Positions 4,359 to 18,700 of a stretch of 64,000 nucleotides of DNA are shown one piece after another (within the stretch, counting starts at the first letter, position 1; every line of letters starts with the position of its first letter). Position numbers and translations under genes: made by a program. Below the pieces are notes generated by a model, which was given only the letters and a program-made list of their open reading frames with translations, searched no databases and was not told the origin of the DNA. Source of the stretch: Bacteroidota bacterium. Lineage in GTDB: Bacteria; Bacteroidota; Ignavibacteria; OLB7. The stretch spans positions 54,759 through 118,758 of the forward strand of contig JAFDZV010000047.1 in assembly GCA_018266795.1 (NCBI GenBank). Direction: 5' to 3'.

Positions 4359-5225
4359 CTATGGAGTGGATTGCTCCACGTTCAACTTGGTTTGCACGGA
4401 CTTGGCCGGGAACACAATCGGATCGTGGGCGGGCTTCGTCTCCTCGGTCTGCGCCGGCTGGTTCTGGGCATTCGCGTTCGTCCGGCTTCCAGCGCCGTTC
4501 GGATCGTTGCCATGCTTCGTACCATCCGTCCGGAGCGAATGAGGTTGCTCCCGATTCGGATCCACGTTGCCGATTGCACCGTTCGGATGGGTCCGGTCCG
4601 TCGATGTCGGCGAGACGGCCGGCTTTGCCGAGGCGGTCCGTGCCGGCTGAGCGGCCGGTTGGCCCGCGGCCTCTCCTGTTCCGGTGCCGGCCGCCGGCCC
4701 TGCTGCAGCCGGCTTGTGCGCGCTGCGGTCTTCGGCACCTGCAACGCCGTCCAACGTCTGCGCAGCCGGGGCGGCTGCGTTCGGCTCCGGTGGCGTTGCG
4801 TTCGGTGCCGGTGCGTGCGCTGCATCGGCTGCAGGTGCAGGCGGGTCCGGGAGTACGTGCGGATCCGCAGCGTCGCGATTCCAGATGAGGAGGAGACCCA
4901 TCACGATGATGCCGGCGGCGACGAGGCCAATCATGCTTCTGACGAAGGTGTTTTCCAGAAGCGTGGCGAAAAGCGAAGCGCCGGTATGCTGTGCGGGTGT
5001 GGTGGCTGCAAGCGTTTCGAGCAGGGCGGAACGCCGCGCCGCGTGGCCGGCCGCCAACTGTCCCTTCTGCGCCTGCATCGCCGATCGGATCGCGCGCTCG
5101 GTCTCCACCATCGCATGCAGGCGTGGGTCCGCCTCGAGGCGGGCCACGAACGCCTGTTCCTCCCGCAGGGGCATGCGCCGGTCCAGATATCGATCGATCA
5201 ACAGATCGTCCCGGGATGGTTTCAT
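4359..5225 (-). CDS. Putative anti-sigma factor (single transmembrane segment, Pro/Ala-rich periplasmic tail)
   Basis: Overlaps the ECF sigma stop by 4 nt (ATGA coupling). The N-terminus MKPSRDDLLIDRYLDRRMPLREEQAFVARLEADPRLHAMVETER is typical of anti-sigma N-domains. TM helix MIGLVAAGIIVMGLLLIW. Low-complexity P/A/T-rich C-terminus. Confidence 0.6.
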   Translation of the reverse strand: MKPSRDDLLIDRYLDRRMPLREEQAFVARLEADPRLHAMVETERAIRSAMQAQKGQLAAGHAARRSALLETLAATTPAQHTGASLFATLLENTFVRSMIGLVAAGIIVMGLLLIWNRDAADPHVLPDPPAPAADAAHAPAPNATPPEPNAAAPAAQTLDGVAGAEDRSAHKPAAAGPAAGTGTGEAAGQPAAQPARTASAKPAVSPTSTDRTHPNGAIGNVDPNREQPHSLRTDGTKHGNDPNGAGSRTNANAQNQPAQTEETKPAHDPIVFPAKSVQTKLNVEQSTP

Positions 5226-5884
5226 TGCAACTTCTCCGATAGCCTTGAATCTCTGTTCGGCACCGGGGCATGTTGTGCCGTATGATGAAGCCCGACGAGC
5301 TCCACTACTTCCTTGCGCAGTTGCGCGCGCGCGCGTGAGGCGCGCATCCAGATCGTCTCCGGCCTCTTGCCGAGCATCGCGGCGATCTCCTCGAAGCGAT
5401 AGCCGCAGTAGGCGTTGAGCACCAGCACCTCGCGGTACTCGAACGAGAGGCGCGAGAGCCCCTCCTCGATCGCTTCCTCCAATTCGCTCCGCTGGGTCTG
5501 CACCGGATGCTCGGAATCCGGCAGGTCATCCAGCGCCATGGACCGGCGCTCGCGCTTCATGCTGTTCAGGCAGAGGTTGCGTGCGATGCGAAGGAAGAAC
5601 CCGCCGGGGTTGCGCACCTCCTGCGGCGCGGTGCGCAGCCTGATCACGCGCTCCCACAACTCCTGTGTGATGTCCGCAGCCTTTGCAGCGTCGCCGGTGA
5701 ACTTGTGGCAGTAGACGTACAGCCGTTGATTGTACCGGTCGAACAGGGCGGCAAATGCATCGTCATCGCCTGCAAGGAACAGGCGGAAGCATGCCGCATC
5801 ATCGTGTGTTGTTGTCGAAGAGAACACCGTTCGATCCCGTTGCGCAACGCTTGGGGTACAGGCGCACACGCATGCATCCTGCAC
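5222..5884 (-). CDS. ECF-type RNA polymerase sigma-70 family factor
   Basis: Region 2 (FAALFDRYNQRLYVYCHKFTGDAAKAADITQELWERV) and region 4 (SFEYREVLVLNAYCGYRFEEIAAMLGKRPETIWMRASRARAQLRK) are clearly ECF. The annotated start is a GTG; the true start may lie about 25 codons downstream at an in-frame GTG. No in-frame ATG precedes region 2. Confidence 0.85.
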   Translation of the reverse strand: MQDACVCACTPSVAQRDRTVFSSTTTHDDAACFRLFLAGDDDAFAALFDRYNQRLYVYCHKFTGDAAKAADITQELWERVIRLRTAPQEVRNPGGFFLRIARNLCLNSMKRERRSMALDDLPDSEHPVQTQRSELEEAIEEGLSRLSFEYREVLVLNAYCGYRFEEIAAMLGKRPETIWMRASRARAQLRKEVVELVGLHHTAQHAPVPNRDSRLSEKLQ

Positions 5885-5976
5885 CCATGATTCCCGCTCC
5901 CCTCACGCCGTGCACGCACCGCGGGGAAGGAGCGTTTGCCGGAAGCTCACATAGTATCAGGACAATTGTTGCAGCC

Positions 5977-6036
5977 TGAACCTAACACGCCGAAAAATAT
6001 TTCGGCAGTCGGGATGGCCGGTTAGGTTCAAACCGG
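5977..6036. promoter_or_regulatory. Composite palindrome in the divergent intergenic region between the ECF sigma gene and the PD40 lipoprotein gene
   Basis: 10-bp inverted arms tgaacctaac / gttaggttca flank a perfect hairpin gccgaaa-aata-tttcggc (5989..6006). This overlaps a second palindrome, ccggtt-aggttcaa-aaccgg. The arms contain GAACCT, resembling ECF -35 elements (GGAAC) on both strands. Confidence 0.4.
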
Positions 6037-6141
6037 TCGCATTGTCTTTCCGGTGATGCGCACAGTGAACAGTAGTTCACCGGAGCCAGGGGACCCAACG
6101 ATGCATCGGCCCGCGCGCAATCCCTCAACCATTCGTGGGTA

Positions 6142-7215
6142 ATGATGATGAAGCACATTCTGATTGCCGCGGCTGCCTGCATTCTGATACTGGCGGGATG
6201 CAAGGACCAGCTTCCAACCAACTACACTCCGACGCTCCAGAGCAACCCCAGGATCTACTACTCGCTCGGCGAGACTGCCGCGCAGATCGGTGGGTACCGT
6301 GTGGATCCGGCCGGAACAAACCGCACGCGCCTGGTTGGTGGCGCCCTCTTCTCCCCTCCGGCGCACGGGCTTATCGCATATGCCGGCTCCGATCATATCG
6401 GGATGGTTGCCAACCTCGACGGCAGCAATCCTCACAAGGTGATCGATGCCGCACAGAACCTTCAGCCGGTTCTCTCTCCCGATGGCACGCAGATCGCCTA
6501 CATGCCGTTGGGTGACTCGATCATCGTTGTCGACGTGGACGGTACGCATCCGCGCACGGTGGCCCACAATGTCACCACGGGCTGCATCCCGGCATTCTCT
6601 CCGGACGGATCGCGGCTGGCGTATATCAGCTCCAAGATCTGGCCGATGAAGCTTCACGTGGTGAGCGGAATCCGCGCGGGGCAGACGCTGCAGGACCGCG
6701 AGGTGGCGGACAACGCTGCCAATTCCGCCGTGTTCAAGGGTGAATTGAAAACGGCCTGGTCACCGGACGGGACCAAGCTTGCCTACAGCGGGGCGGGCAC
6801 CGGAACGGACAGCACCGATATCTTCGTGGTGAATGCGGATGGCACCGGGCGCGTGGACATGACGAACGGTCCCGGCTTCGACATCATGCCCGCGTGGTCG
6901 CCCGATGGCAAAAGCATGGCCTTCGTGAGAGTCGGCGGAGACTTCTTTGGCCATGTCTCCGCGGATATCTGGATCACGAAGGATGGTGGCCTTACGATGC
7001 AGAACGTCACGAACACTCCCGGATTCGATGTGATAGAGATCTGCCCCGAATGGTCGCCCGATGGCAAAAGCATCGCCTACGGAGTACTGGAGCCGTACGC
7101 TCCCTTCCAACAGGCAAACAACCGCCACTCGCTCAGTACGGTGGATCTTGCAACGCAAACCGTGCATACATTGGAGGCAAGCGGTGTGGACGGCTTCGTG
7201 TTCTGGACGCCGTAG
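6142..7215 (+). CDS. PD40/TolB-like beta-propeller repeat lipoprotein
   Basis: Signal peptide with lipobox (ILILAGC), followed by repeated SPDG(T/S)(Q/R/K)(I/L)AY blades (WD40-like/PD40 repeats), as in the TolB periplasmic domain. Confidence 0.8.
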   Translation: MMMKHILIAAAACILILAGCKDQLPTNYTPTLQSNPRIYYSLGETAAQIGGYRVDPAGTNRTRLVGGALFSPPAHGLIAYAGSDHIGMVANLDGSNPHKVIDAAQNLQPVLSPDGTQIAYMPLGDSIIVVDVDGTHPRTVAHNVTTGCIPAFSPDGSRLAYISSKIWPMKLHVVSGIRAGQTLQDREVADNAANSAVFKGELKTAWSPDGTKLAYSGAGTGTDSTDIFVVNADGTGRVDMTNGPGFDIMPAWSPDGKSMAFVRVGGDFFGHVSADIWITKDGGLTMQNVTNTPGFDVIEICPEWSPDGKSIAYGVLEPYAPFQQANNRHSLSTVDLATQTVHTLEASGVDGFVFWTP

Positions 7216-7269
7216 GCTCCAGCCCGGTACCTTCCTCTACAACATTGCGAGGAGTGCAGCACGAACGTG

Positions 7270-9294
7270 ATGAAGCAGGATCGATATCGCTTCGCATCCG
7301 GACGTCTCTCGAATGGGACGGATGGGTGTGGAGGCAGCAAGACCCTCGCATGGCGCGGAACCCGGCTCGGGTTCCGCGCCATCGCTGTTCTGTGGAGCGC
7401 TGCGATCGCGGCCACGATTATTCTCCCGGCATGCGCGCGCGCGCAGTCCGGTGTCGAGCTCGGACCAGGCGCTGCGTACGAGTTCGGCCTTCAGCTCGGG
7501 CTGAACAGAGTGCCCGGCGCAGTGGACTGGTGTGCATGCAACGGCCACGGATCCTCCTACAATCATACCGTGTGGGCCGGCGCCTCGCTCCGCGGCCTCT
7601 TCAGCGGCCCATTCGATCTCGCCGAACGCATGAACGTCGGTTACTCCATCGGCCGTTTCACATCCGATATCTACGACGATACCGCCGCGGCCGGGCACCG
7701 GGACAGATTCATCGTCAACGGAAAGGCGTTCTACGTCTCGGAGGATCTTCTCGCGCTCTGGCACGTTCCGGCCGGGCTTGCGCTGGAGTTCGGTCCCTCG
7801 GTCACCTACCGGGTGAACGGCATCTACACGCAGAGCGAACAGATTGTCGAGCCGGCGGACGCAACCTTTCCGGTCTCGGGAACACCGCAGCGCGAGCTGC
7901 GGAGCGGAGACATCCTCGCCGATGCCCGTCTGCAGGTGGCCCTGCTTGCCGGCGCATCGTACGGCATGCCCCTCTCCGGAACGCTCAGGCTGCTGCCGGC
8001 CCTGCATGCCCGCATCAGCCTGGAGGGGCTGCGCCTCGGGCTTGGCCTGCAGGCCGTCTCGCTGAACGCCGGATTCACACTCCTCGTGAATGTGAACGGG
8101 GCAGAGAATGAGCAGATGGATACACACCTGGAGCCCGGGCCTCCGCATCCGGTGCCGTTCAGGGCTTCGGTGGATATCTATGCGTACGACTCTACCGGTC
8201 TTCGCGCCAAGATGTTCACTGTCCGGCGGCGAAACATGCGTCATACACAGCGCGCGCTCCTTCCCTCCGTGATCGCGTTCAGCCGTAACTCTGCTCTCGT
8301 TTCGGAGCGCTACCTGCTTCTGAATCGCAGCCAGGCACAGACCTTCTCCATCGATTCGCTGGTGCGGATTGACCCGTTCCGGATGGTGGGGCAGTCGTTG
8401 AACGTGGTTGGGATGCGCATGCGGAACAACCCGCAGGCTGTGCTGGCGCTTGCCGGCATGCGTGCGCCGGCGGAGGCGCCGGGAATTGCACACGCGCGGG
8501 CGCTCGCCGTTCGCAGCTACCTCGAGGAGACGTGGGGAGTGGATGCGGGGAGAATCGTCATTGGCGGTGATCCGGCCGCCATTGGGCACGACTCGATCGC
8601 CGGCGTTCAGCTCAGTTCTCAATGGCCCGGATTGTTTGCGCCGGTCGAGACGGTATGGGACGAGCAGCAGATCGATGCGCCGCAGATCGGCCTGAAGCCG
8701 CAGTTCACAGGGGGCATGGGCATGCGGTCGTGGGAGATCACCGTTCGACGCAACGGGAACGAAGTCGCGCACGCCTCCTCCGACGGCTCTGTCCGCAGCT
8801 ACGACATGAACCTCGGTCTGGGAGATGAAGGCGCCGCCGTGCCTCCCGCTCCGTTGGTGGCAGTGCTCACGGCGGAGGATTCCAGCGGCGCACTGGTTGC
8901 GGCGCGCGACACCCTTCCGGTACAGGTGGCGCCAACGGCGGCGGTGGATTCACGGCAATGGGCTGCCTACGGCATAACGATTGGCGACTCCGGATCCATG
9001 CGGGATGCGGCGGCCATGCTGGCAGCCATTGAGACGACGGTGCAATCGGGCGATCATGTGCTGATCCAGCATCCTCCCGGCATGGAGACAGCCCGCACCG
9101 GCGCGCAGCTCCTCGCCGATCGCCTTACCGAGCGGGGAGCAATCGTTCGCATCGAACAGGCGGAGGCCGATCGGGTGGACGGGGGGCATCCGGCCGGCGG
9201 GCATCCGGCCGGCGGGCATCCGGCCGGCGGGCATCCGGCCGGTTCCGTTGCGGTGAACATGCTGGCGGTAACGGTTGAGAGCGGGAGGCGGTAG
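7270..9294 (+). CDS. Outer-membrane-associated protein with OmpA-like C-terminal region and a C-terminal (GGHPA)4 repeat
   Basis: The plus-strand ORF has a signal-like segment (AIAVLWSAAIAATIILPACARAQSG) and protein-like composition. The antisense 511-aa ORF is Arg-rich. OmpA-like segment: ALAGMRAPAEAPGIAHARALAVRSYLEETWGVDAGRIVIGG. First ATG at 7270 (the track start at 7267 is GTG). Confidence 0.65.
   Translation: MKQDRYRFASGRLSNGTDGCGGSKTLAWRGTRLGFRAIAVLWSAAIAATIILPACARAQSGVELGPGAAYEFGLQLGLNRVPGAVDWCACNGHGSSYNHTVWAGASLRGLFSGPFDLAERMNVGYSIGRFTSDIYDDTAAAGHRDRFIVNGKAFYVSEDLLALWHVPAGLALEFGPSVTYRVNGIYTQSEQIVEPADATFPVSGTPQRELRSGDILADARLQVALLAGASYGMPLSGTLRLLPALHARISLEGLRLGLGLQAVSLNAGFTLLVNVNGAENEQMDTHLEPGPPHPVPFRASVDIYAYDSTGLRAKMFTVRRRNMRHTQRALLPSVIAFSRNSALVSERYLLLNRSQAQTFSIDSLVRIDPFRMVGQSLNVVGMRMRNNPQAVLALAGMRAPAEAPGIAHARALAVRSYLEETWGVDAGRIVIGGDPAAIGHDSIAGVQLSSQWPGLFAPVETVWDEQQIDAPQIGLKPQFTGGMGMRSWEITVRRNGNEVAHASSDGSVRSYDMNLGLGDEGAAVPPAPLVAVLTAEDSSGALVAARDTLPVQVAPTAAVDSRQWAAYGITIGDSGSMRDAAAMLAAIETTVQSGDHVLIQHPPGMETARTGAQLLADRLTERGAIVRIEQAEADRVDGGHPAGGHPAGGHPAGGHPAGSVAVNMLAVTVESGRR
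9181..9240 (+). repeat. In-frame 15-nt tandem repeat (ggcgggcatccggcc x4) encoding (GGHPA)4
   Basis: Four near-perfect direct copies seen directly in the sequence, at the 3' end of the 7270..9294 CDS. Confidence 0.9.
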
Positions 9295-9303
9295 CGGAAC
9301 GTG

Positions 9304-10323
9304 CTATCCCTCGCTGCCGGGGCCCGGAGGTACGGGGCGTACGATGATCCAGCAGTACAGGCCGCACAACGCGAATACGGAGTTCAGCACGCCGTGGGTG
9401 ATGCCCATGACCGGGATGGTGATGAATCTCACCTGCAGATATGTCCCCACAGCATACAGCGCAGCCAGCAGCATGGCGATCAACGACGCAACGGACGAAA
9501 TGCGAAGCAACAGTGCCGGGCGTGACTCCAGCGAGCGTGCGATTGCGCCCATGGTGACGATGGCGAAGAGCGTTACGCTCGATGCGAGCAGAAGCGCCGA
9601 GAGAATTTCAACCACGGGAGTTCGTACGGCCAGCGTGATCCCGGCGGCCACCAGCGGCGGACCCGCAATGATACCGGGTGCCGCGAACAGATACATCCGC
9701 CATGCGCGCTTCATTCCCTGCCCCTCCGGCGCCTCGCGCATCGATGCGAGATAGCGGCCTGCCATTCCCGCAAGCAGCGGCGCGATGAAGCCGGCGAAGT
9801 GAAAGTGAACGGCCGTCAGGAGTGCGATCACACCACCAAACCCGAGCATCGTGGTGTTGAACTGATGCACTGCCAGCCAGGCCCCGCCGATCGGAAGATA
9901 GAGCAGTGCTGCCGTGATGGCCAGCTGGTCCAATCTGAATGCGTGCGGCTCGCGCAGCCGAAGCAGGCCGGCGGCGCCGGCTACGACACAGAAGAGTAGC
10001 CAGAGCAGCGCGAGGGCGCCTGCGATGATCCCGGGTTGAAGCAGGCAGGATGCCGCCGCGGCAATCCCTGCGAACGGCTGAATGAAGCGCGCAAGGCGGT
10101 AGACGCCGTTGTTCCCCGCGCCGCGGCCGGGGAATGCCGCCAGCTCCAGACCCAGCGGAACGAAGACGAGGATCCCCAGCAGCAACAGCAGCGAGAAGCG
10201 GTTGAGCGCCTCGTTGCCGAAGGTGTTTGCCACCACCATCGCCACCCACAACGCGCTCCCGAGCAGGGCGCTCATCAACGCGTAGCCGCTTCTGTTGTCG
10301 TCGTTTTCCTGTGACGTGGCCAT
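9304..10323 (-). CDS. Polytopic integral membrane protein, function unknown
   Basis: 339 aa with about 8-10 hydrophobic helices (e.g. LLLLGILVFVPLGLELAAF, LALLWLLFCVVAGAAGLL, LFAAPGIIAGPPLVAAGITLAV). I do not recognise a family. Confidence 0.7.
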   Translation of the reverse strand: MATSQENDDNRSGYALMSALLGSALWVAMVVANTFGNEALNRFSLLLLLGILVFVPLGLELAAFPGRGAGNNGVYRLARFIQPFAGIAAAASCLLQPGIIAGALALLWLLFCVVAGAAGLLRLREPHAFRLDQLAITAALLYLPIGGAWLAVHQFNTTMLGFGGVIALLTAVHFHFAGFIAPLLAGMAGRYLASMREAPEGQGMKRAWRMYLFAAPGIIAGPPLVAAGITLAVRTPVVEILSALLLASSVTLFAIVTMGAIARSLESRPALLLRISSVASLIAMLLAALYAVGTYLQVRFITIPVMGITHGVLNSVFALCGLYCWIIVRPVPPGPGSEG

Positions 10324-10507
10324 CGGGGGAATCCGCTGATAGTTCTACAGGCTCCTCGCAGACTATTGGGCAACGCCATCGGCACGCGTTGGGCGTCACG
10401 TCCGCTCACTGCGACGTCCGGGATGACGCCTCGTTCGCGGCCGTCCGGCTGCCCTGCATCCGACTGCTGTTGAACAGTCTGTCGCATCGTACTGATTCAA
10501 CAGGCTG

Positions 10508-13297
10508 CTAGCGTATTACGTGCAGCATCGCCGTCTCCGTTCGTCCGCCCGCGCGAAGCGTGCACTCGTAGTTCCCGGGTGGAAGTGCCGCAACGTTGAA
10601 CGTCTGTCCCACGGAGCCTGCCTCTGCGTTGCCTTCTGCGTGCTGCATCATGCGGCCGAGCATGTCGCTTACCGTCAGGCTCCATGAGCCGTGCGCCGGC
10701 ATCGCGAACGAAAGCGTGAGCACCGTTGCGGCCGGGTTGGGAACGGCGTGGAGTGCGAGCGTGGAGTGCGCACGCGTTTCATCCGGGACGCCGGCAATGC
10801 CTGCGCGCGCCACCAGATAATTGGCGGTGATCCGGTCCAGGCCCTGGCGGTTCGTTGCGCGCACCGTGTACCGCAGCCCCTGCGCTGTCAACGAGTCCAC
10901 GCAGCCCGTGAAGACGTTGCCGGTATCGCGATGCAGCATGGCCGTGAACGCATGCGGCGTGCCATCCAGCGAGTACCGGGTTCCGCTCAGCATCACGGCG
11001 GTGATGCTGTCGGAGAGATCGTACGGATCGGGAAACACCTCAGCATGGAAGCAGATCTCTCCGCTTCCGGCGTTGCGCTCCGGCAGTGCCGCGGTATCCG
11101 GTGGTTCGTGAATCACGTACGGTCCCGCCCCCCAGGCGTAGTATGCGAACGGTTTCAGAAAACTGTAGTCGCTGCTCCACGTTGTGTACATCATTCCCCG
11201 CGCACCCTGAACGCCCTGCAGCGACAGCCGCCACGCGCGGATGTTGCGCGTATCGTGCTCGTCGTAATAGGGACAGGCGATCTGCTGGAAGCCCATGCCG
11301 CCGAACCATCCGAGACTGGAATCGCGCGAGCCGAAGTTCCAGTTCGCGACCAATGCGCTGTGCGGGATGGAGTCCCAGACGCCGGTAAGGTCGCCATTGA
11401 CCAGGTAGTAGCCTGCGTGAGCGTTATGGAACTTGTCGAACATGTCGCTCCACAGAACGCAGCCCGCACCCTGCTGCGCCGCACCGGCGATCGCGATGCA
11501 GCGGCGTACGTTGTCCGCGAGCAGGTTCGCAGGGCCGATGCCGCGCGCAAGGCATGCGGAGTCCTGATTCATCGCGCGAATCTCGTCGTGCCCGAACATG
11601 AACCTGTGTGGAGCGTAGAGCCCTGCAATGCCGTTCATCTGTGTACGCAGAATGGAGTAGAGTGTATCCTCCGACGGGCAGATCATCACCTGCCCGTTTC
11701 CCTGCTCGTCCGCTATCGTCGTGATCGGGTGGAACCAGGAGACGCGCACGGTGTCGCCGTTGTGGAGCGTGCCGCCTGGGATTCTCCGCAGCGTGGGGGG
11801 CGAATGGTAGGGCCCGTACGAACCGTTGCTTCCGGCAACCAGCGGATCGGCGATGGGCGCAACATCCGTCCCCTCGCGATACTCCGTGGCGCCGTTGCTG
11901 CTCCGGATATGAAGCGGCGTTCCCGGACGGCGCAGCACGTTGGTGAGGCCCGCATCGCGAACCTCGAAATCATCCCACCAGATCGTTCCGCTCCGGCCGC
12001 CCCATACACCGGCGTAGAGCAGCACCGTGCTGTCCTCCAAGGTGTTGAACACCACTTCGGCGCGCGTCCATCCGCTGGTGGTTGCCGGCACATTGAACTG
12101 CGTGAACGTGAGCGCCTGCGTGTTTCCCTTGCTGTCCAGTCCGAGCGCAAGCAACTGCACCGCATCCGCGCTGAGCCCGGAGGTCTTCAGCCATGCGCTC
12201 ATCACGTAGGTCCGGTGCGGGTTGCAGCTCATCCTCCGATTGAACCGGCAGTTGCCGCTGGGATTGCCGTTGGTGAAGTTGGTGCATCGCGCGCTGCGTG
12301 TGCCGCTGTGAACCGTTGTGTTGTCCGCGGTTACGGCGCCGTCGTCGTAGAAGCTCCAGCCGGTGAACGTTCCGTTGCCATCCACATTCTCGAAACCGCC
12401 GTTCGGAAGCGCAACCCGTGCGTCGGGCAGAAGGCGTCCCGTGTCCGCCTCCATCACGTACGGGGCCGATGCTGCGAAGCCCTCTGCAAGGTTGGGATCG
12501 TGCCAGAGGATTCCCTCGGAGTATCCGATGTCCGCCGTGCCCGGGATGATCTCCGCGTTCGCCGCCGCCGCCATCGCCTTGAACCGGCTCACGCTGTCGA
12601 AGTAGTATTGCGGCTGCTGCTCCAGCAGGTTGTACTTGAAATCACCCTGCTGTATGCCGTTCAGCCTGTATGCCGCCATCGTATCGAGCACGGTGCCGAG
12701 CTGCTTCATCGCGTTGGCGCCGCGCAGGTTGTGCTGCGAGAACACCCAGCGCACCGGATAGTCCGGATAATCCCACACGAACGCTCCCTGCACGAACAGC
12801 GAAGCGTTACCCGGTGTGGTGAGTTGCAGCAGCGTGACAACGCCATTGAAGATCCCGTCAGGATCGTTCCCGACCACCAGTGCCTGGCCGCTCCGCACGT
12901 CGATCGCGTATCCTCCCGGTTCCACAGAACTTCTTCCCGGCATCTCCGCACCCTTCGGCAGGGCACGCGCTGCGCGGGCGGCAACGAATGCGTTCGCGTA
13001 CGTTCCAAGAACGATCGCCGGAGCGCCGGCCGTATCCCACTGCGCGATCGGCACGATCGGGCAGCTGCCCGTGCTTCGAGTGCGGATGCCCTGTTGCAGA
13101 TAGCGTGCCGCACGCATCGTCGTGGAGTCCGCATCGTCCGGCACCACGATCGGCGTCTCCGGGTGAATCGCGAACGTCTCCGTGCGGGCGAATGCCGTCT
13201 TCGGATGCGGCATCAGCCCTTCCATCGGTCCCTGGGCCGCCATCGGTGACGATGCGGTCGCGAGAACGGCGAAGAGAATGAGGATGCGTCTGTTCAT
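10508..13297 (-). CDS. Secreted glycoside-hydrolase-like protein (GH20-b/GH67-type N-terminal domain, CBM4/9-like module) with T9SS C-terminal sorting domain
   Basis: Signal peptide MNRRILILFAVLATASSPMAAQG. GGYAIDVRSGQALVVGNDPDGIFNGVVTLLQL resembles the GH20 domain-2 fold. GGFENVDGNGTFTGWSF...WWDDFEV is CBM4/9-like. The C-terminal ~80 aa (VPNPAATVLTLSF...GNYECTLRAGGRTETAMLHVIR) are T9SS CTD-like. The 852-aa plus-strand ORF here is an antisense artifact. Confidence 0.8.
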   Translation of the reverse strand: MNRRILILFAVLATASSPMAAQGPMEGLMPHPKTAFARTETFAIHPETPIVVPDDADSTTMRAARYLQQGIRTRSTGSCPIVPIAQWDTAGAPAIVLGTYANAFVAARAARALPKGAEMPGRSSVEPGGYAIDVRSGQALVVGNDPDGIFNGVVTLLQLTTPGNASLFVQGAFVWDYPDYPVRWVFSQHNLRGANAMKQLGTVLDTMAAYRLNGIQQGDFKYNLLEQQPQYYFDSVSRFKAMAAAANAEIIPGTADIGYSEGILWHDPNLAEGFAASAPYVMEADTGRLLPDARVALPNGGFENVDGNGTFTGWSFYDDGAVTADNTTVHSGTRSARCTNFTNGNPSGNCRFNRRMSCNPHRTYVMSAWLKTSGLSADAVQLLALGLDSKGNTQALTFTQFNVPATTSGWTRAEVVFNTLEDSTVLLYAGVWGGRSGTIWWDDFEVRDAGLTNVLRRPGTPLHIRSSNGATEYREGTDVAPIADPLVAGSNGSYGPYHSPPTLRRIPGGTLHNGDTVRVSWFHPITTIADEQGNGQVMICPSEDTLYSILRTQMNGIAGLYAPHRFMFGHDEIRAMNQDSACLARGIGPANLLADNVRRCIAIAGAAQQGAGCVLWSDMFDKFHNAHAGYYLVNGDLTGVWDSIPHSALVANWNFGSRDSSLGWFGGMGFQQIACPYYDEHDTRNIRAWRLSLQGVQGARGMMYTTWSSDYSFLKPFAYYAWGAGPYVIHEPPDTAALPERNAGSGEICFHAEVFPDPYDLSDSITAVMLSGTRYSLDGTPHAFTAMLHRDTGNVFTGCVDSLTAQGLRYTVRATNRQGLDRITANYLVARAGIAGVPDETRAHSTLALHAVPNPAATVLTLSFAMPAHGSWSLTVSDMLGRMMQHAEGNAEAGSVGQTFNVAALPPGNYECTLRAGGRTETAMLHVIR

Positions 13298-13507
13298 GGT
13301 GCCTGGTGCAACGATCGTGGAACCAGTGATGCGGAACGATGCGGTGCGCCGCGCGGGAGCATCGCTTCCGCCGGACTATTGTATCGCATCGCGATACGTG
13401 CGGACTCGTTCGCGGCATTGCGCCGGCGGAGGTCGGGGAAGGCGGAGCAAGGTAGCCACTCGTGATGGGAGTGCCAAACCGCAGGCGGGCGCAGACCCGG
13501 GGAACGC

Positions 13508-14005
13508 CTACTGCTGCAGCCGCTTGCTCATGATCACGCTCCGGTAGTTGGCGGCATCCCACTGGGTATGATCAACCAGCCGGTATCCGTGCCGCGAATA
13601 GTAGGCAATCAGATGGTGAGCAGGCTCCGCAGTGTCCAGCGCTATCTCCTCAGCCCCCTCATTGCGGGCCATCACCTCCACGGCTTCGAGCAGCCGTGTC
13701 CCGATGCCCGCTCCCTGCAGCTCCGGCTCAACGCCGAACTGTCCGAAGGAGCAGACCTCCGGGCGGTCGTACCATGCCGTACCGCCGGCGTTCGCGCAGT
13801 TGTAGTACATGATGGTTCCCACGATTCGTCCGTCGATCTCGGCCACGAGACATGTGCCGTTATCGATGCGTTCCTGCGTCTGCCGGTCCGTCTGATACGT
13901 TGCAAGGAATCGGAGTCCCATCTCCGCCAGGCCTCTGTACGCGCGGTGAAGGAGCCGGGTAAGCTCCGTCAACGAATCGGCCTCCGTAAATGTGCGAATG
14001 ATCAT
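13508..14005 (-). CDS. GNAT family N-acetyltransferase
   Basis: True start is the internal ATG (MIIRTFTEAD...) overlapping the upstream decarboxylase stop in ATGA. The 355-aa track ORF is an over-extension into the upstream gene. Acetyl-CoA binding motif QFGVEPELQGAGIGTRLLEAV. Confidence 0.85.
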   Translation of the reverse strand: MIIRTFTEADSLTELTRLLHRAYRGLAEMGLRFLATYQTDRQTQERIDNGTCLVAEIDGRIVGTIMYYNCANAGGTAWYDRPEVCSFGQFGVEPELQGAGIGTRLLEAVEVMARNEGAEEIALDTAEPAHHLIAYYSRHGYRLVDHTQWDAANYRSVIMSKRLQQ

Positions 14006-15453
14006 TGCGCTCGTGTTGGACTGGTGTCGGTTGTGGCTGCCGCGCAGCGCGCTCCCTCCTCCTCCAGTATGGCAATCGTCTGCTCGATCTCCTCCTTCGC
14101 GGTGCGCGGGTTGATGGTGCAGAGCCGCAGCACTACCCGCCCTCGCAGCTCCGTGGTGCTCAGCATCGCATAGCCGCTGGCCGTGAGTGCCTCGGTTATC
14201 GCGCGCTGCAGCGCGTCCATTTCCATCGGAGTGCGGGCCTCGTCGCGATAGCGGAAGGTGACGATGCCGATCTGCGCCGGCGTCATGATCTCCCACTGTG
14301 GATTGGAGCGCAGGCGCGCCTCCGCATGTTCGGCCAGCACGATCCCCCAGTCGATCGCCCGGCGAAATGCCGCGGCGCCGAACACCTTCAGCGACATCCA
14401 GAGTTTCAGCGCGCGGAAGCCTCTGGTAAGCTGGACGCCCCAGTCGCGGAAGTTCACCTCCTCCACAGTGAGATCCGAGTCCTTCAGGCAGGACGGCACC
14501 GCGCGAAACGTCTCGCGCAGCAACGTTCCCCTGCGCACGATCACGCAACTGCATTCGAACGGCTGGAAGAGCCACTTGTGCGGGTCCAGCGCGATCGAAT
14601 GCGCGCGGCCAAGCCCCGCAAGCAGCGGGCGTGCACGGTCGCTCAAGGCGGCCGCGGCTCCGTACGCGCCGTCAACATGAAACCAGAGTTCCTCGGCCTC
14701 GCAAAGATCGGCCACGGCATCCAGCGGATCGACTGCTCCGGTGTTGGTTGTTCCGGCGTTCCCCACAACGCAGAACGGCCGCAGCAGCTTCTCCCTGTCA
14801 TCAGTAATGCTCCGGCGCAGCGCAGCCATGTCCATGCGGAGGTCTGCATCCGATCGGACAATGCGAACGCGGTCCGGCGCGAACCCGAGGATGCGCGCGC
14901 CGCGCGTTACGGCGGAGTGTGCCTGGTCCGATGCATAGATCACCGCATCCTGCCACGTCTCCTCCGGAAGCTGATGGCGTGCGGTCGCCAGCGCAGTGAG
15001 GTTGGCCATGGAGCCGCCGCTGACGAAGAGTCCGCCCGCCTCCGGCGGCAGGCCGCAGATCTGGCGCAGCCAGTCCACCGTCACCAGCTCCACCTCCGCG
15101 GCTCCGGCGCCTGCAACCCATGAACCCGCGAACGGATTGAACCCGGCCACCAGAGCATCGGCCATCACGCTCACAACATTGCCCGGGCCGGGAACATAGG
15201 CGAAGAAACGAGGATGATCCACGCGTGTCGTGTTCGCGAACACGGACCCGAGAACTTCCTCCAGCACATGGCCGGGGGCTGAGGGCTCCTCCGGGAGGCC
15301 TGTTCGCAGAAGCGCTTCCATCCGGGTGCGCGAGGGAATGCTTGCCACCGGAAGCTCGCGGAGATGCTCGTGGCGATCCACGATCGCGTCCACTACTGCG
15401 TATCCGAACGCACGAAGTTCTTCGGCGGAGAGCGAGAGTCCTGAGTGTGGCAT
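14002..15453 (-). CDS. Pyridoxal-phosphate-dependent group II decarboxylase (aromatic-L-amino-acid / glutamate / diaminobutyrate decarboxylase family)
   Basis: 483 aa with SGGSMANLTALATAR, HVDGAYGAAAAL and the PLP-lysine motif SIALDPHKWLFQP. Full-length fold-type I decarboxylase architecture. Confidence 0.9.
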   Translation of the reverse strand: MPHSGLSLSAEELRAFGYAVVDAIVDRHEHLRELPVASIPSRTRMEALLRTGLPEEPSAPGHVLEEVLGSVFANTTRVDHPRFFAYVPGPGNVVSVMADALVAGFNPFAGSWVAGAGAAEVELVTVDWLRQICGLPPEAGGLFVSGGSMANLTALATARHQLPEETWQDAVIYASDQAHSAVTRGARILGFAPDRVRIVRSDADLRMDMAALRRSITDDREKLLRPFCVVGNAGTTNTGAVDPLDAVADLCEAEELWFHVDGAYGAAAALSDRARPLLAGLGRAHSIALDPHKWLFQPFECSCVIVRRGTLLRETFRAVPSCLKDSDLTVEEVNFRDWGVQLTRGFRALKLWMSLKVFGAAAFRRAIDWGIVLAEHAEARLRSNPQWEIMTPAQIGIVTFRYRDEARTPMEMDALQRAITEALTASGYAMLSTTELRGRVVLRLCTINPRTAKEEIEQTIAILEEEGARCAAATTDTSPTRAQ

Positions 15454-15701
15454 CGGCTGATGGAGCGAAGGAAATTACAGGAGCGGCATGCGATCGGCAG
15501 GGAACATGTGTCCGATCGGCAGCGGAGTAACCGGAGTTCCTGACGGCTGTTTCCTGCACCTGACCGTGAACGGCGCCGAGCCGCAGGCGAGCGTACGAAG
15601 AATCAATGCCCGGTTATGGAAGACCGCTCGCAACGCGCTCGGTCTTTTGGCAGGAACTCCTGCGTTCACTGCGAACATACAGCACCGCCGGATAACAGAG
15701 C

Positions 15702-15729
15702 GGCCCGGCGGGGAAATCTCCGCCGGGCC
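15702..15729 (-). terminator. GC-rich hairpin (10-bp stem ggcccggcgg / ccgccgggcc, 8-nt loop) 45 nt downstream of the giant metzincin gene stop
   Basis: Perfect inverted repeat seen in the sequence. On the minus strand it is followed by a modestly T-rich stretch (gctctgttatcc). Position is consistent with an intrinsic terminator. Confidence 0.5.
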
Positions 15730-15770
15730 GGATGAGGGTTGATGGCGATGGCCTGCCGTGCAGTTGGCTG

Positions 15771-18700
15771 CTACTGCTTCACGAGCTTCCTGCTCCAGCT
15801 TCGATCGCCCGCGGTTGCATCGAGCAGATAGACGCCGTTAGGGAGGGAGCGCAGGTCCAGCGTCTGCACACAATGCCCGGCAACGTGCGGGGCCTCGACG
15901 TGCATCACCTCGCGGCCGGCAAGATCCGTGATGCGCACATTCAGCGTGGCGTTGGCCGGCACGTCCGTCTCGATCGTCACAAGTCCGGTGCTCGGGTTCG
16001 GATGCAGCATGAAGGCGCCCTCACCCGCTTCCACGATCACGGAGCTGGGCAGATCCGTCACCGTGAAGGGTGCCGATGTCGCCGAGCAGCCGTTGGCATC
16101 CATCACCGAAACGATATAGGTGCCGATCGCAACGATCGGAATCGTCCCGCCCGTGACGCCGGCTATCACCGTATCGTTCCTGCGCCACTCGAGCGTGCCG
16201 ATGGCGCCGTTGTAGGTAAGGGAATCCCCCTTCCCATTCCGTGCGATCACCGGCTTGGCAGGCTTCGGGTACACCGTAACCTGCACTGCTGCGGACGATC
16301 CGGAGCAGCCGCTCCCGTTGGAGACCACCACCGTGTAGTTGCCCGGCAGCTTCACTGAAATCATCGGCGTCGTCTCGCCGGTCGACCAGCGATACGTGGC
16401 ATAGCCGCTGCCGGCATCCAGCATCACGCTGTCACCGGCACAGAACGATGTGGGGCCGATGGCGGTCACCTTCGGCTGAAGTTCCGGAGTTACCGTTACC
16501 GATACGGAGTCCGATGTGTTCGCGCATCCCTGATCGTTGCTCACGCGCACCCAGTAGGTGCCCGCCTTCCTGACCGTGATGGCGTGCGTGTTCGCGCCGG
16601 TCGACCAGATGTAGGCGCTGTATCCGGTGCCGGCATCGATGGTGACGCTGTCGCCGTTGCAGATCGCCGGGGCCTTGCTGGTGGCCAGCTTCGGCTTCGG
16701 ATTCGGGTTCACGGTCACGATCGTCGGCTGCGACGTTGCGCCGCAATCGGCGCTGTCGGCGACCGAGAGGGTGTACGCGCCGCTGGTCCGTACGGCGATG
16801 CTTCGCGTGGTTGCGCCGTTGGACCAGAGGTAGATCTTGTAGCCGGGTGGTCCGGTCAGCACAACGCTGTCACCCTCGCAGATGCTGGTTGCGCCGCCTG
16901 TCGTGATCGACGACGTCGCGCTGCAGATGGAGAAGGTGTCGATCACCCCGATCACGCTGGCATCGTTCTTCGCGGTGATGCGAATCATGGCATGGGTGGA
17001 CTTGATCTGCGGCACCGTCCAAGCAAGCGTGCCGTTGTTGCCGGTGCTCGCGCTTATCGGCGCCCACGTTCCGGTTCGCTCCGTCCAGAGTTCCACCCTG
17101 ACGCTGTCGATGCAGCCGGTGGAGGTCCAGCGTATCGTCTGGCTGCTGCCGGCGGGAACCAACTGGCCCTTCGCCGGATTCTGCGCGATCATCGTTCTCG
17201 GAGCCTCCGGCTTCGCGCTGTCCAGGTTGGAGAAGATGGAGAGGTTCGGCCCGGCGACGGACTTCACCGCGTAGACATACTCGGTGCAGTTGACCACCGC
17301 GAAATCGGTGTATCCGGTCTGCGCTCCCGAAACCGACGTCAGGAGCGTGAGCGTGGCCGGCGTGGCGCCGGGGTTCGTGCCGCGATAGATCGCGTAGGCG
17401 CTGGGAGTTGCACCCACCGGCGCGGTCCAGGCAAGGTCCACCGACGCATTGAACGGCGTTGCGATCAGATTGGTTGGTGGGAGAATGGAGATGATGCGGA
17501 ACGTGCCGCTGACCGCTGAACCGCACATCGGAATGGGATCGGCATCGGATACGCGGATCATCGCCCGCTGTGCAACGACCGCCGGCACCGTCCAGGCATA
17601 CGAGCCGGTGTTCGGCGCGGAGTTGATGATCGTTGTCCAGGTTGTGCCGTCATCGATGGAGTACTCGATCTTCACGGTGCTGTTGGTGCATGCTGCCCAC
17701 GTGATGTTGCGAACCTCGCTGCTGTGCCATTCATCCCGGTCGACCGGCGACGTTACGCGGAACATGCCCAGGCGGCCGATCATGACATCGTTCAAACCGC
17801 GTCCGGTAAGCTGGTCCGGACCGTAGACGCTCATCTGATCGACCGGCGGCGTGTAGCTGTATCGTCCCACGAAGTAGACGTTGTCGCCGTTGGCGTTGGA
17901 GGTAACGGCAACGCCGTCCTCCTGCCGGGCTCCGCCGCCGCGCCGCGCCCATGCGGGCCAGCCGTCCGGATTGTACTTCACCACGAACACATCGTTCCCC
18001 GTGCCGGAGGCTGCGTTCATTGTGAGGTCCGCCACGTAGCAAACATCCTGAAAGGTTCCGGCAACGTAGATGTTGCCGTTGCCGTCAACCGTAACGCCGT
18101 TGGCGACATCGGTGCCGGTGCCGCCGAAGCGGCGCAGCCACTGCAGTGTGCCGGCGCTGTTGAACTTGATGACGATCACATCGCGGCCGCCGATCGATCC
18201 GGTGACCGTTGTGCCGATGTTCACCGTGGAGCTGAACGAGCCGGTAACGATCACGTTCCCGCTGTTGTCGATCGCCGCTCCGCGCAGGTCGTCGGCGCTC
18301 GGGCCCACCACCGACGCGGCCCACTGGAATGCTCCCGTGGTGCTGTACCGGGCAACGAATCCGTCGTCGCCGCCGCTGTTGGTGAGCGTGGTGGCGCCGA
18401 ACGTTGCGGAGGCCGCATTGTAGCGGCCTACCATCACGCAGTTGCCGGAGCCGTCTGCAGCCACGCCGATGGCCTCGTCGTTCCCGGCACTGCCGCCCCG
18501 CTGGGCCCAGTCGAACGTGCCGGCCGGGCTGCAGCGCGCGATGAAGGCGTCCTGGAAGCCGCTGGAGACAAGCGTGCTGGGGCCGAGCGTCACGTTGCCG
18601 GCAAACGTTCCGGCCACATATGCATTGCCGGAATTGTCGATCGCGATTGCGCGCGCAACATCGCGCCCAACACTGCCGCCGCGCGTGGCCCAGAGCACCG

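Follow-up and report, generated by a model that had tools for sequence, protein, structure and literature searches.

Two overlapping genes in a 64,000-nucleotide stretch of a Bacteroidota bacterium contig (JAFDZV010000047.1; "the window" denotes this whole stretch) raise the question of whether a decarboxylase and an acetyltransferase encoded side by side act one after the other to make an N-acetylated amine. The upstream gene encodes a pyridoxal 5′-phosphate (PLP)-dependent group II decarboxylase and the downstream gene a small GNAT acetyltransferase (Table 1), and the initial annotation had likened the pair to the eukaryotic combination of aromatic L-amino acid decarboxylase (AADC) and arylalkylamine N-acetyltransferase (AANAT). 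We found that both genes are intact and selectively constrained, that their adjacency recurs in Kapaibacteria-type genomes and is restricted to them among the bacteria examined, and that the decarboxylase, judged by its sequence, is a member of a bacterial clade of aromatic amino acid decarboxylases (AAADs). A coupled module of decarboxylation and N-acetylation, with an N-acetylated amine as its product, is a tentative reading of these findings, and it is weighed below against its rivals.

Direct reading of the two frames confirmed that the start codon of the GNAT gene overlaps the stop codon of the decarboxylase gene in an ATGA tetranucleotide. The GNAT frame contains no other ATG, GTG, or TTG start in the six codons 5′ of this ATG, and GNAT homologues align from the ATG at position 14005 (family alignment A2). 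No junction is more frequent in bacterial operons than a 4-nucleotide ATGA overlap. The overlap speaks for co-transcription and possible translational coupling and is on its own no proof of a functional link; of the co-translation originally proposed from this junction, the overlap stands and coupling is possible, and a functional link does not follow from the overlap alone. The pair is probably a co-transcribed and translationally coupled two-gene module specific to Kapaibacteria. Each protein has hundreds to thousands of homologues. When the window was compared with a 91%-identical relative (locus L001; synonymous divergence, dS, of ~0.36 to 0.38), the ratio of nonsynonymous to synonymous substitution rates (dN/dS) came to 0.118 in the decarboxylase gene and 0.126 in the GNAT gene, so both genes are under purifying selection, and slightly tighter constrained than the neighbouring genes (0.175 to 0.179). 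The GC content across the pair (0.63 to 0.675) resembled that of the flanks and thus gave no compositional sign of recent horizontal transfer.

The decarboxylase matched Pfam family PF00282 (Pyridoxal_deC) over profile positions 4 to 375 of 375 with 225.5 bits (cut-off, 27; E = 1.2e-66). Its best match in the PDB was the tryptophan decarboxylase of Ruminococcus gnavus (4obu; residues 19 to 468; 348 bits; E = 8.5e-103), followed by plant AAADs and aldehyde synthases (E = 3e-73 to 4e-55) and the DOPA decarboxylase (DDC) of Pseudomonas (E = 7.5e-64), with the plant and Pseudomonas AAADs scoring 190 to 250 bits. Weaker matches were obtained for DesA (195 bits), 2,4-diaminobutyrate (DABA) decarboxylases (164 to 172 bits), histidine decarboxylase (163 bits), and glutamate and cysteine sulfinate decarboxylases (132 to 142 bits); the glutamate decarboxylases GAD65 and GAD67 reached E values of only 1e-37 to 2e-40 (GAD65, 2e-40), compared with 8.5e-103 for 4obu. 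No NCBIfam equivalog was reached by the decarboxylase; the top model, the RhbB DABA decarboxylase (NF052646), gave 239.5 bits where 900 are required, and glutamate decarboxylase models were not among its NCBIfam matches. Identities as a glutamate, DABA, or histidine decarboxylase were therefore rejected on the NCBIfam scores and the PDB ranking. These results uphold the AADC-like character first ascribed to the enzyme, whose closest characterized relatives are AAADs with 4obu in first place, and contradict a grouping with housekeeping glutamate decarboxylases, which had been considered as an alternative.

The PLP site of the decarboxylase is intact. Among 205 family members, the lysine that forms the Schiff base with PLP (Lys293, in DPHKW) and the aspartate that contacts the pyridine nitrogen (Asp261, in DGAYG) were present in all, and the stacking histidine (His179, in SDQAHS) was present in 204. 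The position associated with substrate specificity, Gly370 in CrTDC and Ser in PsTyDC, is Thr343 in the window enzyme and likewise in 4obu, and is uninformative. The bacterial AAAD clade is widespread, with members at 40 to 60% identity to the window enzyme in Longimicrobia, Gemmatimonadota, Acidobacteriota, Flavobacteriia, and other groups; a neighbour-joining tree was too crude to settle the monophyly of the Kapaibacteria decarboxylases. A contig binned as a Bathyarchaeia metagenome-assembled genome (MAG; L007, CAYZRW010000010.1) carries a decarboxylase match of 57% identity, the best among the contig matches listed, and could represent either misbinning or inter-domain transfer.

We also considered a non-aromatic substrate, such as 2,4-diaminobutyrate, lysine, or ornithine, which would lead to an acetylated diamine or polyamine. 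This alternative can point to RhbB as the top NCBIfam score (239 bits), to DesA (5o5c) and DABA decarboxylases among the PDB matches (E = 1e-56 to 1e-47), and to agmatine and polyamine acetyltransferases as the top profile and structure matches of the GNAT. However, the RhbB score lies far under its cut-off, AAAD structures scored 50 to 150 bits above DABA or lysine decarboxylases, and Pfam annotation of the syntenic 21-kb L001 locus revealed, within ~10 kb of the pair, no monooxygenase, no IucA/IucC-type siderophore synthetase, and no DABA aminotransferase. A non-aromatic substrate is thus quite improbable, and the siderophore or DABA version of it was rejected on the RhbB score and the lack of a monooxygenase and synthetase at the locus. 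The same survey found no hydroxylase or methyltransferase near the pair, and the L001 locus contains only FKBPs, Mem_trans, reprolysin, GH20b, YndJ, PD40, a sigma factor, and TrmO. Because none of these four enzyme types is encoded nearby, pathways of the melatonin and siderophore types are excluded, in keeping with the early argument that the missing monooxygenase and synthetase speak against a hydroxamate siderophore cluster.

The GNAT matched Pfam family PF00583 (Acetyltransf_1) with 66.3 bits (cut-off, 20.7; E = 3.7e-18), and its acetyl-CoA site is intact, with a motif A that fits the Q/RxxGxG/A consensus. In alignment A2, Gly100 was invariant, Gly102 was nearly invariant, and the positions of Tyr136 and Tyr141 were invariant. 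The family is sharply bounded, with a mean column identity of 47% and motifs of its own (LHRAY..LA.MGLRF.ATHQ, WYDRP.VASFGQF, ALDTAEPA.HL..YY.R.GYR, and NYRSVIMSK). It reached no NCBIfam model, scoring 38.7 bits against a cut-off of 124 for PRK03624/YpeA. Identities as RimI (TIGR01575; 30.6 versus 86.4 bits), as an AAC(6′) or AAC(3) enzyme (16 to 19 versus 140 to 400 bits), and as EctA (TIGR02406; 17.1 versus 120.6 bits) were rejected; the clustering with ribosomal-protein or aminoglycoside acetyltransferases that had been raised as a possibility was thus not seen. An AlphaFold2 model (pLDDT, 94.9) adopted a GNAT fold with TM-scores of 0.65 to 0.82 to known GNAT structures. When the GNAT protein (P0121) was looked up by exact match, no encoding contig was on record.

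In the databases, the nearest relatives bear the labels Candidatus Kapa(i)bacteria, Chlorobi, or Bacteroidetes MAG. To assess conservation of the pair within the class, we used eleven individual contig look-ups, ten of which gave loci, and compared seven deep lineages between which the decarboxylase is 54 to 71% and the GNAT 56 to 74% identical. The decarboxylase gene lies directly upstream of the GNAT gene in four of the seven lineages (58 to 71% and 60 to 74% identity, respectively), three of which have genes that overlap by 1 or 4 nucleotides, and it lies nearby in five. In lineage A (the window, L001, and L002), the order is reprolysin, decarboxylase, GNAT, GH20b, YndJ, and the ATGA of the window is replaced by TAATG in L001 and L002. 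An ATGA overlap is also found in lineage F (L174; decarboxylase, GNAT, GH20b) and lineage G (L173; reprolysin, decarboxylase, GNAT). Lineage B (L003, L004, and L167) has the order decarboxylase, GNAT, GH20b with gaps of 102 nucleotides in L003 and 262 nucleotides in L167. In lineage E (L169 and L170), the order is rearranged to GNAT, GH20b, decarboxylase, HEAT, and the decarboxylase gene of L169 lies within ~3.3 kb of the GNAT gene. The remaining two lineages have no decarboxylase gene at the locus, lineage C (L005) reading reprolysin, two FlgD_ig genes, GNAT, GH20b, YndJ and lineage D (L168) reading reprolysin, GNAT, GH20b, YndJ-like. The expectation that relatives would share the pair thus held for some Kapaibacteria lineages, four of seven with direct adjacency, and failed in two lineages at this locus and in the bacteria examined elsewhere.

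The coupled module can be described in three steps. A cytoplasmic PLP enzyme would first decarboxylate an L-amino acid that is aromatic or otherwise bulky and neutral, giving a carbanionic quinonoid. The quinonoid would then be protonated at Cα to yield a primary arylalkylamine, a step that is uncertain in this genus; the donor is usually a tyrosine of the large catalytic loop, and here the thiol of Cys322 is assumed to take its place. Finally, the GNAT would use acetyl-CoA to N-acetylate the amine, giving, for example, N-acetyl-tryptamine, N-acetyl-tyramine, or N-acetyl-phenethylamine. Decarboxylases yield exactly the primary amines that GNATs acetylate. This substrate-product logic, together with the recurrence of the overlapping junction across lineages of ~60% identity, makes the coupled module the single most likely reading. 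Also in its favour are the closeness of the decarboxylase to a characterized tryptophan decarboxylase, the intact PLP site and motif A, the constraint on both genes, and the amine acetyltransferases that head the PDB profile and structure matches of the GNAT. The module is plausible and not dominant, because the surrounding block is syntenic, two lineages have the GNAT without the decarboxylase, and both families are solitary elsewhere. The idea that the N-acetylated amine serves as a signal or osmolyte is pure conjecture.

Several observations weigh against coupling, beginning with the GNAT. Its best single-sequence match in the PDB was YpeA (2pdo; E = 1.5e-5), and the family profile matched best an insect agmatine N-acetyltransferase (7ciu; E = 1.9e-9) and a polyamine N-acetyltransferase (5k9n; E = 6.7e-9), in both cases over residues ~80 to 159 only, which form the acetyl-CoA-binding half. 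The best Foldseek TM-score of the model (0.82) was to PaiA, a spermidine/spermine N-acetyltransferase, in a list that was flat over functionally unrelated GNATs at 15 to 23% identity and showed no preference for AANATs. Since the profile matches are confined to the cofactor half and the structural list is flat, the acceptor substrate of this discrete, uncharacterized family cannot be inferred from sequence or fold. The gene order likewise tells against a dedicated pair. In L005 and L168, GNAT, GH20b, and YndJ are kept in the absence of the decarboxylase, and the constant neighbour of the GNAT gene is not the decarboxylase gene but the GH20b-like gene, which lies directly downstream of it in all six lineages with a visible flank. 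Moreover, the block from reprolysin through GH20b to YndJ is syntenic as a whole, so the adjacency of decarboxylase and GNAT may reflect synteny rather than function. Outside the class, other phyla supplied 80 loci with the decarboxylase (72 with at least 1.5 kb downstream) and metagenomes 80 loci with the GNAT (49 with at least 1.5 kb upstream); this GNAT family was found beside the decarboxylase in 0 of the former and a decarboxylase beside the GNAT in 0 of the latter. A loose profile search for any GNAT near the decarboxylase orthologues gave none adjacent, the best hit (E = 0.08) lying 3.2 kb away. The pair is therefore restricted to Kapaibacteria-type genomes, and both families are solitary in the other bacteria examined.

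These data bear most directly on a second explanation, in which the genes are co-transcribed and functionally independent, the decarboxylase being a stand-alone amine-forming enzyme and the GNAT having a role of its own, either housekeeping, as in Alphaproteobacteria, or tied to the GH20b-like and YndJ genes. Besides the empty counts outside the class, the decarboxylase has no useful recurrent neighbour there (at most 7 of 80 loci), and the GNAT gene sits beside the housekeeping genes for a short-chain dehydrogenase/reductase and chorismate synthase (aroC; 9 to 14 of 80 loci). Within the class, L005 and L168 have a GNAT gene and no decarboxylase gene at the locus, the adjacency of GNAT and GH20b is unbroken and tightens to an 18-nucleotide gap in L168, and the decarboxylase gene of L171 overlaps an amidohydrolase/adenine deaminase-like gene instead. 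On the other hand, an ATGA or TAATG overlap has been kept in three lineages at ~58 to 64% protein identity, the decarboxylase gene still lies at most 3.3 kb from the GNAT gene after the L169 rearrangement, and the substrate-product logic fits coupling. Functional independence is accordingly a real contender, if on the whole an unlikely one.

The remaining points against coupling concern the catalytic loop of the decarboxylase. HMMER alignments to 4OBU, AtPAAS (6EEI), CrTDC (6EEW), OsTDC (6KHN), and PpDDC (7XIN) placed Cys322 of the window enzyme, in the motif VPSCLKD, under the PEYLK of the solved enzymes and the PEFLK of the aldehyde synthase, that is, at the position of the large-loop tyrosine on which canonical amine-forming AAADs rely. 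Its equivalents are Tyr332 in pig and human DDC and, counted along the alignment, Tyr348 in CrTDC and Phe338 in AtPAAS. Among the 205 family members, this column contained Tyr in 176, Ile in 19, Cys in 4, and Val, Met, and Phe in 2 each. Cysteine was confined to this genus, that is, to the window and its 91% relative (set entries L001, L002, and P0001); L001 and L002, whose decarboxylase genes are mutually identical, share the TGC codon. The residue preceding Cys322 is Ser or Ala where the consensus is Glu. The large-loop tyrosine is the acid that protonates Cα of the quinonoid, and once it is exchanged for phenylalanine, DDC and plant AAADs act as decarboxylation-dependent oxidative deaminases, or aldehyde synthases (PMC7497351; bioRxiv 10.1101/404970; PMC4177580); the same change abolishes amine formation by DDC and defines the plant aldehyde synthases (PMC7497351; bioRxiv 10.1101/404970). 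With cysteine in place of tyrosine, amine release by the window enzyme is uncertain. In addition, the lineage A decarboxylase is 15 to 20% more diverged from outgroups than most of its Tyr-bearing sisters (distance to the outgroup set, 0.60 versus 0.50 to 0.53; the Tyr-bearing L169 stands at 0.59). The lineage A GNAT has not evolved faster and is, if anything, the least diverged from outgroups.

A third explanation holds that the change from Tyr322 to Cys marks a neofunctionalization in this genus, to an aromatic acetaldehyde synthase (oxidative deaminase) or to another reaction that diverts the quinonoid, so that no amine would be made for the GNAT. The fixation of Cys322 and of the small residue before it in the window and L001/L002, the effect of Tyr-to-Phe exchange in DDC and plant AAADs (PMC7497351; 10.1101/404970), the recurrent loss of this tyrosine in the family, the longer decarboxylase branch, and a purifying selection that sets the gene apart from a pseudogene all speak for such a shift. 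In contrast to Phe, Ile, Val, or Met, however, cysteine can donate a proton. Aldehyde synthases are marked by a large-loop residue that is no proton donor (Phe) or by Asn in place of the small-loop His; in the window enzyme the tyrosine is gone, a potential proton donor stands in its place, and the small-loop His179 is kept. Cysteine thiols are competent Cα proton donors or acid-base groups in several racemases and epimerases. It is therefore chemically reasonable that the Cys322 thiol substitutes for the tyrosine hydroxyl, and to our knowledge no Cys variant at this position has been characterized so far. Tight coupling to the GNAT, furthermore, has been kept in the Cys322 lineage itself. Taking both sides together, we consider a loss of amine formation by neofunctionalization clearly unlikely. 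Pseudogene status of the Cys322 decarboxylase was rejected on its dN/dS of 0.118, and a correlation between Cys322 and the overlapping junction was rejected because L173 and L174, whose enzymes, like those of lineages B and E, carry Tyr, overlap too.

Column 322 also yielded an observation beyond this genus. Ile, Val, Met, or Phe occupies it in 25 of the 205 family members (~12%), examples being the enzymes of loci L009, L068, L075, L080, L081, L084, and L085 and proteins P0034, P0044, P0052, and P0055; a Blastocatellia clade (e.g., L009, an Ile variant) has the motif TGILE. By analogy with the plant Tyr-to-Phe fingerprint, these non-Tyr variants are candidate bacterial aldehyde synthases, and no reports of such variants were found in the literature searched.

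For the coupled module, then, the analogy with AADC and AANAT drawn in the initial annotation stands in part. An AADC-type decarboxylase and a recurrent junction speak for it, and the lack of a substrate clue from the GNAT, the absence of the pair beyond the class, and Cys322 speak against it.

Table 1. Positions of the genes, residues, and sites discussed (numbered from the first letter of the window)
Feature	Coordinates	Strand	Remarks
Decarboxylase gene	14002..15453	minus	483 aa; stop TGA 14004..14002; read directly
GNAT gene	13508..14005	minus	165 aa; start ATG 14005..14003; read directly
ATGA junction	14002..14005	minus	GNAT ATG overlaps decarboxylase TGA
Lys293 codon AAG	14575..14577	minus	PLP Schiff-base lysine
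Cys322 codon TGC	14488..14490	minus	Catalytic large-loop Tyr position (HMMER alignments)
GNAT motif A, Q97-G-A-G100-I-G102	13700..13717	minus	Acetyl-CoA pyrophosphate-binding loop
Upstream intergenic region	15454..15770	minus	317 nt
GC hairpin	15730..15701	minus	Perfect 11-bp; arms CGGCCCGGCGG…CCGCCGGGCCG; weak T tail; 41 nt past reprolysin stop
GH20b-domain/CBM_4_9/T9SS-tail protein	10508..13297	minus	929 aa; secreted; downstream of GNAT; Pfam
YndJ-like membrane protein	9304..10323	minus	Pfam PF14158, E = 4e-57; usually after GH20b-like gene

Both proteins that flank the pair carry a Por_Secre_tail domain, the 1,782-aa reprolysin/SBBP protein upstream with E = 1.5e-11 and the 929-aa GH20b/CBM protein downstream with E = 1.2e-4, the latter below Pfam's cut-off, which agrees with the description of the pair as lying among cargo genes of the type IX secretion system (T9SS). 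The GC hairpin upstream of the pair, a terminator-like hit, may end transcription of the reprolysin gene ahead of the decarboxylase-GNAT unit and would fit a transcription start of the pair's own. A scan for sigma-70-type promoters upstream of the pair, which omits Bacteroidota-type promoters, was empty, and no Rfam riboswitch or leader RNA was matched in positions 13000 to 16000. Nothing resembling a terminator was found between the GNAT gene and the GH20b-like gene, so the unit may reach further downstream. The YndJ-like gene is syntenic in L001, L003, L005, and probably L168.

The triad of the GNAT gene, the gene for a secreted GH20b-domain/CBM_4_9/T9SS-tail protein of ~920 aa, and, usually, a YndJ-like gene (positions 9304 to 13507 in the window; also in L001, L003, L005, L168, L169, and L174) is kept more constantly than the pairing of decarboxylase and GNAT. 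Two FlgD_ig-domain genes occupy the decarboxylase slot between reprolysin and GNAT in L005 (positions 4467 to 5893), and nothing lies inside the 300-nucleotide gap between reprolysin and GNAT in L168; this slot thus varies within a block that is conserved in other respects. In L171 (positions 6001 to 9148), the decarboxylase gene (59% identity; Tyr) overlaps by 8 nucleotides the gene for a 548-aa Amidohydro_1/adenine-deaminase-C protein, possibly a different partner for the decarboxylase family. Beyond the YndJ-like gene, an open reading frame on the plus strand (7267-9294) encodes a protein of 675 aa that matches no Pfam family and ends in four tandem GGHPA repeats (~9180 to 9250; …DGGHPAGGHPAGGHPAGGHPAGS…) and has an orthologue of 642 to 658 aa in L001 and L002.

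Both superfamilies are known, and animals provide a precedent for the proposed chemistry; the novelty lies in the linkage of the two genes in an operon in one bacterial class, in the orphan GNAT family, and in the cysteine in place of the catalytic tyrosine. If the coupling is true, the locus would give bacteria a short path to N-acetyl-arylalkylamines encoded by linked genes and would open a first way to the function of an orphan GNAT family that is widespread in Alphaproteobacteria and elsewhere; if it is false, these are ordinary neighbouring metabolic genes. N-Acetyl-arylalkylamines have been reported to have antimicrobial and signalling activities. The exchange of Tyr for Cys bears on the balance that group II decarboxylases strike between releasing an amine and deaminating oxidatively, and points to the bacterial Ile, Val, Met, and Phe homologues as candidate aldehyde synthases. 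The most far-reaching proposal joins these strands: a native bacterial arylalkylamine pathway, with the orphan GNAT family as the long-missing bacterial type of AANAT, Cys322 as a natural swap of the catalytic acid (acting as a thiol donor or yielding the first bacterial AAAD-derived aldehyde synthase), and the Ile/Val/Met/Phe variants as further, independent bacterial aldehyde synthases. We think it improbable that all of this would hold. In a 2026 study of engineered N-acetyltyramine production, both bacterial and insect acetyltransferases were tested, and the AANAT of Bombyx mori was the most promising (PMC13281258).

Compared with known systems, the decarboxylase most resembles the R. gnavus tryptophan decarboxylase (4OBU/4OBV), with which it shares the fold-type I group II architecture, a full-length alignment, the PLP lysine, the aspartate, the stacking histidine, and the HPRFF and NFxD/TR motifs; the gut enzyme differs in having PEYLKD where the window has PSCLKD, and in lacking a GNAT partner. 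Aromatic acetaldehyde synthases of plants and insects (AtPAAS Phe338, PsTyDC Y350F, DDC Y332F) have lost the tyrosine at the homologous position (10.1101/404970; PMC7497351), whereas the bacterial protein of the window has a cysteine, a potential proton donor, rather than phenylalanine. Non-ribosomal-peptide-synthetase-independent siderophore (NIS) modules (DesA/RhbB with a monooxygenase, an acyltransferase, and a synthetase) likewise place a group II decarboxylase beside an acyl- or acetyltransferase; the window locus has neither an N-monooxygenase nor IucA/IucC, its decarboxylase falls far below the RhbB cut-off, and its GNAT hits PF00583, with no siderophore-type acyltransferase among the Pfam matches. 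Small bacterial GNATs of the YpeA/PRK03624 and YhbS types are likewise single-domain proteins of comparable size, and YpeA (2pdo) gave the best single-sequence match, yet the PRK03624 score lies far below the 124-bit cut-off and the window family has motifs of its own. Animal AADC and AANAT, which convert serotonin to N-acetylserotonin or, with the insect enzyme iAANAT, inactivate amines, carry out the same two chemical steps as those proposed here, and the window GNAT profile weakly matches the insect AANAT-like 7ciu and 5k9n. The window GNAT, which matches in the cofactor half only, appears to lie outside the AANAT families of vertebrates and insects, and the hydroxylase and O-methyltransferase of a melatonin pathway have no counterpart nearby. 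The animal system also uses unlinked genes, whereas those of the window overlap in an operon.

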